This document shows positions 31,794 through 46,769 of a stretch of DNA of 64,000 nucleotides, piece by piece. The stretch's first letter is position 1. Each line of letters opens with the position of its first letter. A program made the translations under genes and the position numbers. The notes beneath the pieces are model-generated. The model made no database searches. It saw only the letters and a list, made by a program, of their open reading frames with translations, and was not told the DNA's origin. This DNA is from Oligoflexia bacterium (lineage in GTDB: Bacteria; Bdellovibrionota; UBA1018): assembly GCA_031292385.1 (NCBI GenBank), contig JARLHE010000040.1:34471-98470 (forward strand), read 5' to 3'.

Positions 31794-33788
31794 ATGAACA
31801 GCGCTTTTAAAAGGCTTTTTTTGATCGCGGTTTCCCTGGGGGTGGTGGGCTCGTGCGCGGCCGCGCTCCATTCCTTAAGCCGGCAGCGCGCCGAGCGCAT
31901 GAATTTCGAGATCTCGGAAATGGCTTCGGTCGTTTCCGTTCAGGTCAGGGGAGAGCTGGAGCATCTGCTTCGTCGCGTGACCGAGCTCGGCGAGAAGCCG
32001 ATCGATGGAGCCAAGCTTTCGGAAGCGGATTACGAGATTGTCAGTCTGTCGGCTTGGGAAAAAGGCGGCGGCGACGGCCAAACTCTGGTCCGTACCGCGA
32101 CGCTCACGCACCCGGAAAATACCGCGGTCGCAGCGACGCCGGTCAATGACGAGGAGTCCGATCGGAAGATCGCGGCCAAGGCATTGAAGGGCCGGCCCGT
32201 ATTGGACTATCAAGGTCTGCAAGGCGCAAAGCTCGGCGTGATCGTGGTTCCGATGGGAACGCTTCCCATCAAGCGGGTGGCGCTTGCCCGGTTTCGCTTG
32301 GATCGTTTTCAAAGCGCTTTTCGGACAAATGATACTTCGATGGAATTGAGCCTGCTCGGCTCGAACGGAATGATTTTCGCGGATAAAAATCCCGATCACA
32401 TCGGTACGGCCAGTCCGGTGGCAGGCCAGGTGTTCGCCTCCCGGGGCGGCATGCGTTCGGGAGAGTTCGATTACAAGGATTCGAGTGGCGTTGAAAAGAG
32501 ATACAGCTATCGGCTCGTTTCGCAAGGTCAGTTCGCGGTTTTAAGCGCGCTTCCGAGCTCGGAAGGAAAGCTTTCGACCCGTGAACTCCTCGTTTTCTTC
32601 GGCTTGATCGCGTTTTTCCTGGTCGGAGTGACGGCGGCCAATCTGCTTGGGCTTTTCAAGGGCAGAAAGAGCGCTCCGACGTCCGAATCGGATCGTTCGA
32701 AGGAGCTCCCAAAAGAGCTTGCGGAGCCCGTCGCGGATTTGCCTCCGCCGTTTGTTCCGGCGGCCGACCGAAAGCTGATTTCGGTGCTTTATGTCAGCAT
32801 GCTTCCTCGCGATCCGGCGCTTGAAAACGCATCGCTCGAGGACATTGTTTCGATCATGAACGAGTTCTTCGAGATCGGATCGACTCAGATCGGCCGCTTT
32901 GAAGGCGTTTTGGAGCGCGGAGCCGGCGCTTCTTTTCTCGGGTCCTGGGATGACCCGGCAAAGGCGATGCGCTGCGCGCTCAACCTGAGGCAGGAGTTTT
33001 TCAATTACACCCAATCGCAAAAGTTGGAAGGCAAGCCCGCTGTGACGGTGATCATGGGAGCCGATTGGGGCATGGGGTTGGTCGCAAACGTCGGGCCGGC
33101 CGGCAACCGCTCGCGTACGACCGTGGGCGATGTTTCGGTCAATGCTCGCGCGCTCGCGCTTTTGAGTCCGAGTGTCGAAACGGATCTTCTCGTTTCTCAG
33201 GCTTTTTGGGAGCAGGTCGCACCAGGCTTTGTGGGTTCCCGCGCTGCGGAAGCGAATTTGACTTCGCTCAGCGGCCTGACCGCTTGCTACCGAATTAAAG
33301 GTTATCACGACGAGGACGGAAAATCGGTTCTGACTCCGATGCCTTCGATTTCTCCCGCGGTCATAGGGTTGGATCCCAAGCTGCAGGAAGTCGTTCCGGA
33401 TTCGGTTCGCTGGCTGGTGAATAACGGTACGCAGATCGTGGGCCCGTTTTCGGCTTCCGAAATCGCATCGCAGCTTTACGCGATGGAGCTCGATTTTGAT
33501 TGCGAATGTTGGCGTGAAGGCGCGGGCGATCGCCGCTCAATCGCCAAGGCCGGGCTTTTCGGGGAGCTCAGCGAGGATACCGCGGCTGAGCTTTGGGTTT
33601 ATGACGGAAAGACGATCCATGGCCCCGTGACCGAGGGCTTTTTAAAGACGGCTTTACAGCATGGCGCCGTTCAGGAAAGTGATTTGGTTTGTCAATCGAG
33701 CACGATCTCCGGCTGGCGAAAGGTTTCGGAAGTTTTGACTCCGAAGACCCCTACTGTGGTCCTACAAGATCCACCGACTGCGGCCTGA
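31794..33788 (+). CDS. membrane sensor protein with degenerate (probably inactive) cyclase-homology domain and two DUF4339/GYF-like C-terminal repeats
   Basis: N-terminal TM, about 250-aa periplasmic region, second TM, then a CHD-like region (ISVLYVSM...GAGASFLGSW...VTVIMGADWGMGLV) in which both metal-binding Asp and the GDA motif are missing. It ends in two W/G-rich ~45-aa repeats (NNGTQIVGPFSASEIASQLYA; VYDGKTIHGPVTEGFLKTALQHGAV). Confidence 0.55.
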   Translation: MNSAFKRLFLIAVSLGVVGSCAAALHSLSRQRAERMNFEISEMASVVSVQVRGELEHLLRRVTELGEKPIDGAKLSEADYEIVSLSAWEKGGGDGQTLVRTATLTHPENTAVAATPVNDEESDRKIAAKALKGRPVLDYQGLQGAKLGVIVVPMGTLPIKRVALARFRLDRFQSAFRTNDTSMELSLLGSNGMIFADKNPDHIGTASPVAGQVFASRGGMRSGEFDYKDSSGVEKRYSYRLVSQGQFAVLSALPSSEGKLSTRELLVFFGLIAFFLVGVTAANLLGLFKGRKSAPTSESDRSKELPKELAEPVADLPPPFVPAADRKLISVLYVSMLPRDPALENASLEDIVSIMNEFFEIGSTQIGRFEGVLERGAGASFLGSWDDPAKAMRCALNLRQEFFNYTQSQKLEGKPAVTVIMGADWGMGLVANVGPAGNRSRTTVGDVSVNARALALLSPSVETDLLVSQAFWEQVAPGFVGSRAAEANLTSLSGLTACYRIKGYHDEDGKSVLTPMPSISPAVIGLDPKLQEVVPDSVRWLVNNGTQIVGPFSASEIASQLYAMELDFDCECWREGAGDRRSIAKAGLFGELSEDTAAELWVYDGKTIHGPVTEGFLKTALQHGAVQESDLVCQSSTISGWRKVSEVLTPKTPTVVLQDPPTAA

Positions 33789-34386
33789 GATTCGATGGCT
33801 CGGCAAGCACGATGAGATCGGGATAAAAGAGCTGATTGAGCAGGATCCGGGGGGCAGCCCGGCCTAAAAACCGTGCTCGCGCGCTGCTCGTTTGCGCCTC
33901 TTCATGGCCGACGATCAAAAGAGTTCCGCTTTTTTCGCCGTTGATTTCGATTTTCCAATCCAGGCTCGAGAAAAGTTTCGCGATCCTTCCCTTGGATTCG
34001 TCCAGGACTTGAAAGGCGATGCTCTTGCTCGGCGTGAACTCGGTGATTCGCGCGTGGATTTCAAATCGTTTGGCGGCCCCCTTATGCGGGTCCATGTGAA
34101 GGGTCACGAGCGCGCCCGCGTGGGCCAGGTCCGACCCGTCGGAAAGCTCGGCCCGCGCCAGGTTGTGAAACCAGGTCGGCCATTCCTTGACGTGTGAAAC
34201 CATGTAAGCGAGCTCCTCGGGGGCTTGCTCGGTCGGAACGGTACGGTCAAAAGTCAGTGTCCAATCGGGGCCCCGCGAAAGCCAGCTCCAGAGCCCGAAG
34301 CCAAGGATTCCAATGGCTCCGGTGACGGCGAGTATGCTCAACCTCCGCATCATGCTGCTCATTGGGGCCGATTTTTTTTGGAACAT
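33751..34386 (-). CDS. hypothetical membrane-anchored protein (SRPBCC-like fold suspected)
   Basis: N-terminal TM helix followed by a ~170-aa soluble domain. Its last 38 nt overlap the convergent upstream gene. Confidence 0.4.
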   Translation of the reverse strand: MFQKKSAPMSSMMRRLSILAVTGAIGILGFGLWSWLSRGPDWTLTFDRTVPTEQAPEELAYMVSHVKEWPTWFHNLARAELSDGSDLAHAGALVTLHMDPHKGAAKRFEIHARITEFTPSKSIAFQVLDESKGRIAKLFSSLDWKIEINGEKSGTLLIVGHEEAQTSSARARFLGRAAPRILLNQLFYPDLIVLAEPSNLRPQSVDLVGPQ

Positions 34387-36099: not shown

Positions 36100-36749
36100 T
36101 CGCCCGACATAGGGTGGTCAAAGGACAAGCGCAGCGAGTGCAGGGCCGGGCGAGGAAAATTCGCGGCCCGACCGCCGTATTTCGTATCGCCAAGGAGTGG
36201 GAAGCCCTCGGCTGCCGCTTGAGCCCGGATTTGATGCGACCTCCCTGTTTCGAGCGAAAATTCCGCGAGCGTCAGCCGGATGCCGTTGAAGCTTGCATGC
36301 CCTTTGGGCGTTACCCGTAGCGCCGAAAGTTTGGCTACCGGAGTGCGTGCCGCGCGTTCTTTGGAGATCGCTCGGGTCGTGTTGGTGCGTTCGTCTTTGA
36401 GCAGAAAATGCTCCCATCGTTCCGGGGCGTTCAATTTTCCGCTCGGATCAACCAGCCAGGCCAGATAGACGCGGCTCAGGCTTCCCGACTGCAAGGCTTC
36501 GGTCAATCTTTGCGCCGATTTGCTTCGTTTTGCCAAAATCATGATGCCCGAAGTGTTCCGGTCCAGCCGGTGAATCAGGCCAATGTAATTTCGCCCGACA
36601 TGTCCTCTCGCCCAATCGACCAGATTAGGCTCCCCTGTATGCTCCCCCTGGCTTAAAAGGCCCGCTGGCTTGTCGATGACCATCAAATGCGTATCCTCAA
36701 ACAAGATCGTGGGCATCTGGGGAGAGGGTTTGCTAGAATCTGAACTCAT
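36039..36749 (-). CDS. RluA-family pseudouridine synthase (second copy)
   Basis: HRLDRNTSGIMILA catalytic motif. Confidence 0.75.
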   Translation of the reverse strand: MSSDSSKPSPQMPTILFEDTHLMVIDKPAGLLSQGEHTGEPNLVDWARGHVGRNYIGLIHRLDRNTSGIMILAKRSKSAQRLTEALQSGSLSRVYLAWLVDPSGKLNAPERWEHFLLKDERTNTTRAISKERAARTPVAKLSALRVTPKGHASFNGIRLTLAEFSLETGRSHQIRAQAAAEGFPLLGDTKYGGRAANFPRPALHSLRLSFDHPMSGDHLVFEAPLPEDMRSIQPFK

Positions 36750-39204
36750 GCGAAGCCTTTCTGCGATTCTTTGCGTTTTCGTCATTTTGGCTTACGCCAT
36801 CGCTCGCTGGTTTAGCAAGGGGCCGCTCCCCGATCTTTTGCTTCTGGCGGTCGGCTTGCCGTTGATGGTTCTTTTCGCGATCCGTATTGTTTCCCTTCGT
36901 ACCCAGTTTGTCGCCGCGATCATGCTGATCACGACGCTGACCGCGGGCATCATTTTCTGGAGCCTCAGTATTCTGGAAACCCGCGAGCAAGTGGCTCGCA
37001 TCGAGCATCAATCGGTGATTTTCTCCCGGTTCTCAAGCGAGCGTTTGGTCTCGAATTTCGTCAAGAATTTCGAGCATAACTATCTCGACCGGTTTTTGCC
37101 AAGCATCCGGGAGCTGACGGCGACCGATGAGAACCTGGTCTCCGTGCAGATTATCTCGGCCCGCTCCCGTAATGTTCTTTTTGACAGCGAGAAAGCCTTG
37201 GGAGGGAAATCGGCCGCGGTTTCGACTCCCGTGATCGACAAAGCCCATTTCTCCAAAGAGGCGGAAGAGGAGCTCTTGTCCCGCGATCTCGTCAGTCGAA
37301 AGCTGACTCGGGACGGCGAGCCGAGCTTTTCGGTCATCAGCACCTACCGGGCCGAAAACGGCGAAGCGGTTTTCCTGGTGAACTATCTTTTCAGTTACCG
37401 GTCTTTGCAGCGGAGCCTGCGCTTGATTCGCCACCAGATCCTGCTCGACTTGGTGCCGGCCACGATTTTGGGTTTTTTGATCGCCTTGGGTTTCGCCCAG
37501 ATCCTGATCGCGCCGATCCGGGCTCTCATGGCCGCTTTGGGCAAGGTCACCTCGGGCGATTACTCGGCGCAGGTCAGAATCAGGAACCAGGATGAGATCG
37601 GGGAGCTTGCCTCCGCGTTCAATCTCATGACCGAGGAGCTGAGGCGAAAGAAGGAACTGCGTAAATTCCTGTCGAATTCATCCTACCAGCGCATCATACG
37701 GGCGACGGAGCAGGGCGAAGGCCGGATCGGCGGCCGTCGGATGCAGGCCACGATCCTGTTTTCCGATATCCGTAACTTCGTCGCTCACTGCGAAGCGCTC
37801 GATGCCGAAGACGTCACCTCGATGCTCAACGATTATTTCACCGAGATGGTTGAAGTCATTCATCGCAATGGGGGAGAGGTCGATAAGTTCATCGGAGACG
37901 CTATTCTTGCCGTGTTTTACGAAGAAGCCGGAAACGGCGAGTCTTCGCTTCAGGCGATCTATTGCGCGCTCGGCATGAAGGCCCGGCTTTTGGAATTCAA
38001 TGCCCGGCGGGCGTCCCAGGGCAAGCCCACGCTTGAAATCGGAGTCGGCATCAGCCGCGGCGAGATCATCTCGGGCCCGATCGGCTCTGACGATCGGATG
38101 GATTTCACTGTCATCGGCGATGTCGTCAATCTCGCCAATCGCATCGAAAAGCTCTCTAAGCAAGGCAAGCACACCCGCGTTGTTTTTTCGGACGCGGTCG
38201 AGGCGGTCGTGCGCGGCTTGCTCGATTACGAGGAAATCGAAGTGGTCGGGGGGATTCGCGGCAAAAGCGAGGAGGTGCGGGTTTTCGAGCTCGTTCGAAT
38301 CAAGGATATCGATACGCTCAAAGCGCATCTCGAAGCGCCGGCGGATCAGAATCCGGAGCTTCGAGTCAGGAGCGTCGAGCTTTTGGGGCAATCCGGCCAT
38401 CGCGACGCGGTGAAGCTATTGGCGGAGGCTTTGTCCGATAAGAGTGAGGCCGTGCGGATTGCCGCCGCAGGCGCGATCGCCCGCGCTGCTCAGGCCCAAA
38501 GCGGCTCTCAAGAAGGGGACCAAACGGCGGATGCGGTGCGCGCTCTTTTTGCGCGCCTGAGAAACGAGACCGCGCTCAAGCCGATATCGGCTTTGATCAC
38601 CAGCATCGGGAAGCTTTGCCGCACGAACGAGATCCTGGCGCTCGAGCCTTTTTTGAAATTCAAGGACGAGCGTATCGTCGCCAACGCGGTCGAGGCTTTG
38701 GGCTGGTCCAAAGCGCCGCGGGCGGCGGATCTGATTTTGCCGCTGCTTTCGAGCAAGAATAACCGCATCAAGGCGAACGCCGCCATGGCGCTTTTTTCGG
38801 CCGGCCATGTCGAGGTGATCGACGCTTTGAAGCCGATGCTCATGCACTCGGACGCGCCCATGCGCTCGAGCGCCGCCTTCGCCATCGGCGAGCTGACGTT
38901 GATCGCTGATTTGGATTCGGTCGTGAGCGGGCTGAAGGACGACGCGGCCAAGATGCGTTTTTATCTCGCCGAGCTCCAGGACTGCGTGCCCATGCTCGTG
39001 TCGCTGCTGCGCGACCCGGATCCGATCGTTCGCAGGCAATCGGTCATCGCGCTCGGCAAGATCAAGGACAAGGCGGCCGTGTTGCCGATGATCGAGATGC
39101 TGGACGGCGGCTCGAAGGATTCTCTGGCGGTCGATATCCTGAACGCACTCCGCTCAATCGGCTCTCATCGCGTGATTCGCGATACTCTGGCTAGGCTGTC
39201 CTAG
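36748..39204 (+). CDS. membrane adenylate cyclase: TM - HAMP - class III cyclase domain - HEAT (PBS-lyase type) repeats
   Basis: HAMP (IAPIRALMAALGKVTSGDYSAQVRI...ELASAFNLM), an active CHD (ILFSDIRNF, KFIGDAILAVF, VNLANRIEKLSK), and C-terminal repeated AVRxxAAxALG HEAT units. The track start at 36670 overlaps the divergent gene, so MRSLSAILC at 36748 was used. Confidence 0.75.
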   Translation: MRSLSAILCVFVILAYAIARWFSKGPLPDLLLLAVGLPLMVLFAIRIVSLRTQFVAAIMLITTLTAGIIFWSLSILETREQVARIEHQSVIFSRFSSERLVSNFVKNFEHNYLDRFLPSIRELTATDENLVSVQIISARSRNVLFDSEKALGGKSAAVSTPVIDKAHFSKEAEEELLSRDLVSRKLTRDGEPSFSVISTYRAENGEAVFLVNYLFSYRSLQRSLRLIRHQILLDLVPATILGFLIALGFAQILIAPIRALMAALGKVTSGDYSAQVRIRNQDEIGELASAFNLMTEELRRKKELRKFLSNSSYQRIIRATEQGEGRIGGRRMQATILFSDIRNFVAHCEALDAEDVTSMLNDYFTEMVEVIHRNGGEVDKFIGDAILAVFYEEAGNGESSLQAIYCALGMKARLLEFNARRASQGKPTLEIGVGISRGEIISGPIGSDDRMDFTVIGDVVNLANRIEKLSKQGKHTRVVFSDAVEAVVRGLLDYEEIEVVGGIRGKSEEVRVFELVRIKDIDTLKAHLEAPADQNPELRVRSVELLGQSGHRDAVKLLAEALSDKSEAVRIAAAGAIARAAQAQSGSQEGDQTADAVRALFARLRNETALKPISALITSIGKLCRTNEILALEPFLKFKDERIVANAVEALGWSKAPRAADLILPLLSSKNNRIKANAAMALFSAGHVEVIDALKPMLMHSDAPMRSSAAFAIGELTLIADLDSVVSGLKDDAAKMRFYLAELQDCVPMLVSLLRDPDPIVRRQSVIALGKIKDKAAVLPMIEMLDGGSKDSLAVDILNALRSIGSHRVIRDTLARLS

Positions 39205-44417: not shown

Positions 44418-46769
44418 GTGAGAAACCGCCTCTGGCTCTGGCAGCTGCCGATTATCCTGCTTTGCGTTTTTGCGTATGCGGTTTGCGATCTGGGCGTTCG
44501 CGGCAAGCTTGAAAATCGGCTCCTGCGAGAACGCCTATTCCCCGGCTTGAGGTCGGTTTCAACGGTCTTTTCGGACGCGAAATTCCGAATGCGGGGGCCG
44601 GCGCCGATCAAGAATAAGATCGTGATCGTGGATGTCGACGGGGCGTCTTTGGATGCTTTGGGTCGCTGGCCTTGGCATCGCGATGTCGTCGCGGCCGTGA
44701 TCGATACGATTTTTTCGTACGGGGCCAAGGTGGTCGGCCTCGATATGGTGTTTTCGGAGCCGGACCGGCGCATTCCGGAAGAGTTGGCGAACGCGTTGCC
44801 GCCTGAAATGTTTCGAGACTTAAAGCGGAAACTCGAAACCGATTCGAAACTGACCGAAGTCATTCGTAAATACAGCGATCGCCTCGTTCTAGGATGGGCC
44901 AGCGATGGGCATTGCCAGCCTCTTTATCAGGATCCCAAAGATTGCCCGGTGAATGATCCGCAAGTGATCTCGGGCATTCAGCCGGGATTCGAGAAGTTCG
45001 CGGTTTCCCAGCAGGAGCCTCTGACTTTCGATAATCGGAAAACGCCGTTGCTGTCGTTGCTCGCTCTCCTGGCCAATCTTCCCGAGTATAGCGACGCCGC
45101 CCAGCATGCGGGCTCGTTCGATATCGTTCCCGATTCCGACGGTGTGGTGAGGCGGACGAATCTCGTTTTCGCCGCTTCTTCTCAAAGCGGCATGGCGAAA
45201 GCCTATCCGTCGCTCCCCCTGGAAATGGCCAGGGTCGGGCTCGGCGACCGGCTTGATGTTCATTTCGATTCAGGCAACCGCATCGAATCGCTGCGGTTCG
45301 CGAAATCGGGAGAAGCCCTGCCGGTTTCTCCCGTGGGCGCTTTGGAGATCAATTTTCGCGGCCCCGCCCAAAGCTTTCAGTATGTCAGCGTCGCTGAGCT
45401 TCTCGCCGAAGGAGAAAAACTGGAAAAAGACGGAACCCGGCGGCCCGCCGCGGTCTCGAAGGTCGAGTTCTTGCGGAATGCGTATGTTCTCTTCGGGGTG
45501 TCCGCTCTGGGGGTGTACGATATGCGGGCGTTTCCCTTCGATTCGAACGTCCCGGGGGTGGAAGGGCATGCGAATATTTTGGACAATATCCTGGCTCAGG
45601 ATTTCCTCACCAGCGGCAAAGGGCTTTTGAGCTCGGATTTGCTCTATTTGATCATGATTTTAGGCGGCGTCTTGTTCGCGATTTTCGTGCAGCGGTTGGA
45701 CGCGATCCCCGCGCTCGTTTTCACTTTGCTGGTCTTCGGAGGGCTCGGGACGTTCGATACGCAGTTTCTTTTCAGGCGCAATATCGATTGGAACACGAGC
45801 TTCTTTTTTCTCGAGCTCAGCTTCATTTTCATGTCCACGATCGCCGCCAAATACGTCATCGAAGAGCGGAACAAAAGGTTCGTGCGCGGCGCTTTCGCGA
45901 AGTACGTGGCTCCGGCGGTGGTTGATTCGATCCTGAAGGATCCGGCGAAGCTGACCGTGGGCGGCGAAAAGCGCGAGCTGACGATTCTGTTTTCGGACAT
46001 CCGCGGCTTTACCACCTTTTCGGAGCGCCTCGACGCCAGGGCCTTGGCCTCGTTCCTGAATGATTACCTGTCGATTCAAACCAAGATCATCTTCGGTCAC
46101 GAAGGCACGCTCGATAAATACATCGGCGATGCGATCATGGCCTTCTGGGGCGCGCCGCTCGATCAGGCGAAGCAAGCTTCGAATGCGTGCAAAGCGGCGA
46201 TCGCGATGATGCAGGCCCTGGCAGCTAACCGCAAACGATTCAAGGAACAATACGGCGTCGACGTGGATGTCGGGATCGGTCTTAATAGCGGCATGGTGAA
46301 CGTGGGCAACATGGGTTCGAACGAGAACTTTTCGTACACGGTGATCGGTGACCACGTCAATCTCGCATCGAGGCTCGAGGGGCTGACCAAGTATTACGGC
46401 GCCGGGATCGTGACCTCGCGCTTTACGCTCGATATGATCGAGAAGGAGGGCGAGCCGCTTCCTAGGTTTCGCGTGTTGGATTCGGTCAAGGTCAAAGGCC
46501 GGAAAAGCGCGGTGGAGCTGGTGCAGATTCTGGACCGGGATTACCCCGCCGACGGCCTCGCGGCGTTCGAAGAAGCGAGAAAACTCTATTTGTCCCGGGA
46601 CTGGAATGCCGCTGAAGCGGCCTTTAGGAAAGCAAATGAGTTGATTTCTTCGGCGCTCGGACTGGTTGTCGATGGGCCGTCTCAAATGTACATCGACCGA
46701 TTCAGTGAATTGAGGTCGGCGCCTCCTTCGTTCGATTGGGATGGCTCCTGGGAAATGCACAGTAAGTAA
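44418..46769 (+). CDS. CHASE2 sensor - class III adenylate/guanylate cyclase
   Basis: CHASE2 (IVIVDVDGASLDALGRWPWHRD...GLDMVFSEPD), three TM helices, and an active CHD (ILFSDIRGFT, KYIGDAIMAFWGAP, VNLASRLEGLTK). Confidence 0.8.
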   Translation: MRNRLWLWQLPIILLCVFAYAVCDLGVRGKLENRLLRERLFPGLRSVSTVFSDAKFRMRGPAPIKNKIVIVDVDGASLDALGRWPWHRDVVAAVIDTIFSYGAKVVGLDMVFSEPDRRIPEELANALPPEMFRDLKRKLETDSKLTEVIRKYSDRLVLGWASDGHCQPLYQDPKDCPVNDPQVISGIQPGFEKFAVSQQEPLTFDNRKTPLLSLLALLANLPEYSDAAQHAGSFDIVPDSDGVVRRTNLVFAASSQSGMAKAYPSLPLEMARVGLGDRLDVHFDSGNRIESLRFAKSGEALPVSPVGALEINFRGPAQSFQYVSVAELLAEGEKLEKDGTRRPAAVSKVEFLRNAYVLFGVSALGVYDMRAFPFDSNVPGVEGHANILDNILAQDFLTSGKGLLSSDLLYLIMILGGVLFAIFVQRLDAIPALVFTLLVFGGLGTFDTQFLFRRNIDWNTSFFFLELSFIFMSTIAAKYVIEERNKRFVRGAFAKYVAPAVVDSILKDPAKLTVGGEKRELTILFSDIRGFTTFSERLDARALASFLNDYLSIQTKIIFGHEGTLDKYIGDAIMAFWGAPLDQAKQASNACKAAIAMMQALAANRKRFKEQYGVDVDVGIGLNSGMVNVGNMGSNENFSYTVIGDHVNLASRLEGLTKYYGAGIVTSRFTLDMIEKEGEPLPRFRVLDSVKVKGRKSAVELVQILDRDYPADGLAAFEEARKLYLSRDWNAAEAAFRKANELISSALGLVVDGPSQMYIDRFSELRSAPPSFDWDGSWEMHSK

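Follow-up and report, generated by a model that had tools for sequence, protein, structure and literature searches.

The gene at positions 31794-33788(+) of the window (the whole stretch of 64,000 nucleotides analyzed here) encodes a membrane protein whose class III cyclase-homology domain (CHD) is predicted to be unable to form cyclic nucleotides via the known two-metal mechanism. On balance, the protein is best explained as a Bdellovibrionota-specific transmembrane receptor or scaffold without catalytic function, with GYF-mediated protein binding as its output. Since the catalytic set has been lost, signaling most likely proceeds through partner binding by the C-terminal GYF tail and not through cAMP synthesis. 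A literature search found no account of this pseudo-cyclase family, which is also absent from a 2016 survey of cyclase-like proteins. One Bdellovibrio paper that mentions both GYF and adenylate cyclase was set aside, as it concerns Bd0075 and a BACTH assay and not this protein.

Gene and Domain Organization

The open reading frame coincides exactly with positions 31794-33788(+) and its product of 664 aa is identical to MDR3607900.1, recorded as a 'hypothetical protein' of an Oligoflexia bacterium MAG. The start codon is supported by orthologues of 50% identity, whose N-termini align from residue 1. The domain arrangement is TM1, a dCache-like sensor, TM2, a disordered linker, the CHD, two GYF_2 domains and a tail with -AA as its last residues. 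The structural model referred to below was obtained with AF2 from a 73-sequence alignment (pLDDT 89). The features are as follows:

31794..33788 (+): full-length gene, including its stop codon, for the 664-aa pseudo-cyclase receptor (ORF listing)
31812..31880 (+): TM1, residues 7-29 (hydropathy >1.6; within the long helix 2-67 of the model)
31881..32576 (+): residues 30-261, the dCache-like sensor of the periplasm with its pair of PAS-like modules
32577..32660 (+): TM2, residues 262-289 (hydropathy; helix 262-289 in the model)
32661..32765 (+): Pro-rich disordered juxtamembrane linker, residues 290-324 (pLDDT <50 at residues 291-315)
32766..33338 (+): dead class III CHD, residues 325-515
32796..32798 (+): S335, which replaces the first metal-binding Asp (hmmalign column)
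32916..32930 (+): R375-A379 (RGAGA), equivalent to K-x-x-G-D, with the purine-specifying Lys replaced by Arg and the second metal Asp by Ala
33117..33152 (+): T442-A453 (TTVGDVSVNARA), equivalent to the canonical T-V-I-G-D-x-V-N-x-A-x-R
33405..33563 (+): GYF_2 domain a, residues 538-590, with the invariant DFDCECW motif (Pfam PF14237)
33588..33737 (+): GYF_2 domain b, residues 599-648 (Pfam PF14237)
33738..33785 (+): unconserved C-terminal tail with a conserved terminal Ala-Ala, a candidate ClpXP-type degron

The periplasmic region between two TM helices, described in the initial annotation, is recovered by both hydropathy and the model as TM1, sensor and TM2, with K6 and R7 of the cytoplasmic N-terminus ahead of TM1. 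The sensor displays the features of dCache_1, with tandem PAS-like modules behind a long N-terminal helix, flanked by both TM segments. The disordered tether is located between the periplasmic sensor and the cytoplasmic modules, an arrangement that offers no obvious route by which ligand binding would be relayed to the cytoplasm and so weighs against the receptor model.

A Cyclase Fold Without Catalytic Residues

Several searches agree on the class III cyclase scaffold that had been proposed for the central domain. Class III cyclases are the sole PDB sequence matches of the pseudo-cyclase, and BLASTP against the two other cyclases of the window gives 38-39 bits, with a CHD identity of 22-23%. 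A profile built from three family sequences retrieves 53 Pfam-positive cyclases from a library of 1.8 billion proteins (E 1e-12 to 1e-20) and, in the reverse direction, an HMM of the CHDs of Pfam-confirmed active relatives gives the target 98.5 bits (E 1.3e-30). The target CHD superimposes on those of dCache-HAMP cyclases with a TM of about 0.83. Pfam and NCBIfam scans of the target return no cyclase domain at E<=1, and the Pfam cyclase model (Guanylate_cyc PF00211) matches 31/73 family members.

All six canonical catalytic positions were compared with those of the nearest active relatives. The segment ISVLYVSM is in register with F-S-D-I and GAGASFL with I-G-D-A, which places S335 at the first metal site (D1) and A379 at the second (D2). 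The D1 column holds Asp in 49/56 active relatives but in 0/73 family members, 44 of which have Ser instead (hmmalign); at D2, Asp is found in 51/56 active relatives and in 2/73 family members. The transition-state columns contain V449 in place of Asn and A453 in place of Arg, with N450 one position late and R452 one position early. Across the family the Asn column retains Asn in 4/73 members and the Arg column displays Ala in 46/73, while N450 is itself unconserved (N in P0002, H in P0003). The phosphate-loop (GFT) and KGK motifs are likewise gone from the family CHD.

Catalytic residues displaced to neighboring positions, which would have refuted the initial annotation, were considered and rejected, since none is found near either metal site: within +/-3 residues of S335 or A379 the target has no acidic residue and the family no conserved one. 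The nearest are D340, conserved in only 23% of the family, and E374, whose counterpart is the Asp of 'VDK', a residue with no catalytic role. The in-register alignment thus bears out the earlier observation that both metal Asp residues and the GDA motif are replaced. Judged from sequence, the pseudo-cyclase assignment is strongly supported and broader than first claimed, the loss being common to all 73 relatives.

A Single Family in Bdellovibrionota

The number of homologues depends on the search, a word-indexed search returning 3 proteins and an exhaustive one 839. The family is detected in Bdellovibrionota only, in a single copy per genome, and is inherited vertically. Its gene occupies a fixed slot, with murF on one side and rluA/rlmI on the other. 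The 71 alignable family CHDs form one clade in an NJ tree, which points to a single origin of the dead CHD. Within the window there are no paralogues; the tail matches itself alone, and the two true cyclases are all that the CHD matches. The phylum to which the family is restricted is known for predation, and the gene is conserved there beside core genes.

Conservation along the protein is very uneven, with a mean family identity of 58% for GYF_2 a, 48% for GYF_2 b, 33% for the CHD, 23% for the sensor and about 11-12% for the linker. The tandem GYF_2 module is therefore the most constrained part of the protein, and the CHD fold is held under purifying selection, as its 33% identity compares with about 11% in the linkers. 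HAMP is detected by Pfam in 0/73 family members vs. 45/57 active relatives, and the family linker is 21-106 aa long and contains 9% Pro.

Some orthologues lack the CHD altogether. L026/P0080 keeps the sensor, the TM and the GYF pair in the same syntenic slot, and P0073, P0090 and P0138 display the same CHD-less architecture, the comparison of these three being at the level of domain order. The GYF module is the sole cytoplasmic part kept in these CHD-deleted orthologues. The fact that they dropped the CHD but kept the sensor and the GYF tail indicates that the conserved function does not reside in the CHD. In P0112, an active dCache-TM-HAMP-cyclase architecture is combined with one C-terminal GYF_2. 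The surviving intermediates run from an active CHD with one GYF_2 through a dead CHD with two to no CHD with two. Being monophyletic, single-copy and syntenically fixed, the clade offers an exceptionally clean natural series for asking why a dead cyclase domain persists.

The GYF_2 Tail and the C-Terminus

Two DUF4339-like repeats of ~45 aa had been reported at the end of the protein. The repeats themselves are upheld by matches to Pfam GYF_2 (PF14237, formerly DUF4339), but not their length, as each is about 50 aa. The full-length protein reaches 33.6 bits, above the cut-off of 25.8. Scanned alone, domain a gives 26.2 bits (E 6.9e-6) and domain b 17.3 bits (E 0.004), the latter falling below the cut-off of 25.8 and covering profile positions 4-47 of 50; the two repeats align with each other in hhalign at P 0.005. 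GYF_2 is found by Pfam in 61/73 relatives. Residues W540, G545, G550, P551, D567, W573, F589, G610, C633, G640 and W641 are invariant in the pair, and a search of the tail against PDB sequences gives no match at E<=10.

The protein's own Pro-rich linker, which contains PPPF, was examined as a GYF ligand and rejected family-wide, given that its length and sequence are unconserved and that Pro is only mildly enriched. The conserved neighborhood contains no obvious candidate for a proline-rich GYF ligand, and no binding partner was found, which weighs against a GYF-mediated output.

The last residues of the target are ...DPPTAA. An -AA end is present in 48/72 family members vs. 3/51 window genes (binomial P about 1e-41), and an -[AVS]A end in 62/72; -AA is also found in 22/57 active relatives. 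SsrA- and CtrA-type ClpXP signals provide the basis for reading a C-terminal -AA as a degron. Going by the terminal dipeptide alone, the -AA on the flexible cytoplasmic tail is a candidate ClpXP-type degron. The window contains no tmRNA with which the tag end could be compared.

Possible Roles of the Retained CHD

In class III cyclases the purine is specified by Lys with Asp or Thr for ATP and by Glu with Cys for GTP. The purine-pair positions are occupied by R375 and T442 in the target, a conservative vestige of the adenine pair. In the family, the Lys position contains R in 39/73 members and K in 12/73 (R/K 51/73, 70%), and the Thr position S in 24/73 and T in 23/73 (S/T 47/73, 64%). Family-specific residues are also conserved near the old pocket, namely G334, S335, F373, E374, S380, F381 (92%) and R452 (70%). 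A constrained CHD with conserved residues in this region may do more than dimerize and might act in ligand binding. One rather unlikely reading is that a nucleotide or some other small molecule still binds in the degenerate pocket of the CHD dimer interface, is not turned over and gates the GYF pair. The basic and hydroxyl residues kept at the Lys and Thr positions would suit it, but metal-dependent triphosphate binding needs the two Asp, and in the RGC system mutation of one metal Asp abolishes nucleotide binding (PMC12264004). S335, E374, S380, F381 and R452 do cluster in pocket-forming segments; the GFT phosphate loop and the KGK motif have nevertheless gone too, and the family shows wide variation at D2 and in the Asn column, unlike what a conserved pocket would show. 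The purifying selection on the CHD argues for a ligand site, while the dispensability of the domain in some lineages argues against it. Precedents for such binding are the forskolin site of mammalian AC, degenerate GGDEF receptors and P. aeruginosa PDB 6yii. The latter is described as a 'class III adenylyl cyclase-like ATP-binding protein.'

A second reading, which builds on the initial annotation, has the dead CHD dimerize with that of an active cyclase, such as one of those in the window, and thereby modulate cAMP/cGMP synthesis. The window does contain two real cyclases, at 36748-39204 and 44418-46769, which Pfam resolves as HAMP-Guanylate_cyc-HEAT and CHASE2-Guanylate_cyc. Dimerization is obligate for class III CHDs, and mammalian tmAC, sGC and chytrid RGC1/NeoR are well-known heterodimers in which one site is degenerate (PMC12264004); the fold elements that form the dimer are kept in the modeled target CHD. 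In a productive CHD heterodimer, however, both Asp come from one subunit, and the residues for base recognition and the transition state from its partner (PMC12264004). The target lacks both metal Asp, Asn and Arg, so that neither composite site would function and any heterodimer would contain two crippled sites. With the residues present, the only effect of pairing could be inhibition by sequestration, and an inhibitory, dominant-negative heterodimer might conceivably form. Both window cyclases have full catalytic sets and are of homodimer types that require no partner, their CHDs are just 22-23% identical to that of the target, and orthologues without a CHD exist.

The genomic arrangement also weighs on this reading. 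The immediate neighbor is convergent:

33751..34386 (-): 211-aa protein with a membrane anchor and a weak SRPBCC/Polyketide_cyc2 match (PF10604, E 0.003)

Its 3' end overlaps that of the pseudo-cyclase gene by 38 bp, and its counterpart adjoins the family gene in 18/27 loci. The other neighbors are housekeeping genes (sua5, murF, rluA, rlmI) in conserved order, so the context carries no functional clue; the conserved gene order shows orthology, not function. The HAMP-CHD-HEAT cyclase is located ~3 kb downstream, and is also close by in at least L004, L006 and L009. Neither cyclase gene of the window forms one operon with the pseudo-cyclase gene, however, as at least three unrelated genes lie between, including one on the opposite strand. 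L007, L010, L012, L013, L015 and L024 keep the pseudo-cyclase but have no HAMP-CHD-HEAT cyclase at the syntenic position. With neither active-site half complete, self-sufficient neighbors and no shared operon, the proposal that the protein heterodimerizes with or regulates these cyclases finds no support, and pairing of this kind is distinctly improbable.

That the protein is still an active cyclase, through non-canonical residues or another metal arrangement, is hardly credible: relatives are auto-annotated 'class 3 adenylate cyclase' in JGI, migrated catalytic residues occur occasionally in pseudoenzymes (PMC10211241) and N450 and R452 miss the canonical Asn and Arg columns by a single position each, but the metal sites have no acidic residue within +/-3 and none conserved there in the family, N450 is not conserved, every phosphate-binding motif is gone and the Pfam cyclase model misses the target even at E<=1.

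Relation to Known Systems

The nearest sequence relatives of the pseudo-cyclase are the dCache-HAMP-class III cyclases (P0091-P0152), with which it shares the topology, the sensor type and a homologous CHD. In these enzymes D, K, D, T, N and R are kept in about 88-98% (49-55/56) and most possess HAMP. By contrast, the target family is devoid of the metal/transition-state set and of HAMP, and has added the disordered tether and the tandem GYF_2.

A degenerate CHD is also kept in tmAC C1/C2, soluble guanylyl cyclase alpha/beta and RGC1/NeoR, where it has a regulatory or structural role at the dimer interface. However, the subunits of tmAC, sGC and RGC1/NeoR each keep one full half, and one site works (PMC12264004), whereas the pseudo-cyclase is defective in both halves and no active site can be completed. 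LapD (PDB 3pjx), with degenerate GGDEF/EAL domains, belongs to another branch of the superfamily, having a GGDEF and not a CHD. LapD keeps HAMP, binds c-di-GMP via its EAL and signals inside-out; the pseudo-cyclase, by comparison, has no evident nucleotide-binding module.

With GltJ of Myxococcus xanthus it shares a GYF-type cytoplasmic domain in a membrane protein. In GltJ, the β-sheet face of this domain is the binding surface for a proline-rich stretch of AglZ, at micromolar affinity (PMC11135422). GltJ contains one N-terminal GYF, the statistical norm for bacterial GYF domains, together with a zinc-ribbon (ZnR) domain, whereas the pseudo-cyclase has two C-terminal GYF_2 domains, no ZnR and a family-specific DFDCECW...H...C signature. 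It thereby adds a C-terminal, tandem, Cys/His-bearing type to the bacterial GYF domains, among which, to our knowledge, GltJ alone has an experimentally known ligand.

A Proposed Model for the Receptor

The preferred reading, a non-catalytic receptor or scaffold that acts through its GYF tail, suggests the following course of events. The ancestor would have been a dCache-TM-HAMP-class III cyclase, from which the lineage would have lost the HAMP transducer, with a disordered tether taking its place, as well as every residue for metal binding, phosphate binding and transition-state stabilization, and gained a second GYF_2 domain. The periplasmic dCache would bind a small molecule, and this binding could set the clustering or the dimer geometry of the receptor instead of driving a rigid helical relay. 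The dead CHD may act as a head-to-tail dimerization and spacing module that displays two GYF pairs. By analogy with Myxococcus GltJ, the GYF_2 pair would bring at least one cytoplasmic partner to the membrane, and the conserved C-terminal -AA could subject the protein to regulated ClpXP-type proteolysis.

A far more specific form of this proposal is a long shot. The tandem GYF_2, with its invariant DFDCECW...H609...C633, would constitute a metal- or redox-dependent recruitment switch unique to Bdellovibrionota and mounted on a cyclase receptor retired as an enzyme. It would be cleared in a life-cycle-stage-wise manner via the -AA degron, and would connect a periplasmic, possibly prey-derived cue to a cytoplasmic machine (e.g., a gliding or invasion apparatus) with no second messenger involved. 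A receptor that once worked through a second messenger would in that case have documentably evolved into one that recruits proteins directly.

When second-messenger networks of Bdellovibrionota are reconstructed, the relatives that public databases label 'hypothetical protein' or 'class 3 adenylate cyclase' should be left out as sources of cAMP/cGMP. Orthologues are present in records without a MAG label (Bdellovibrionota FG-1 and FG-2), and the phenotype may therefore be accessible by genetics.

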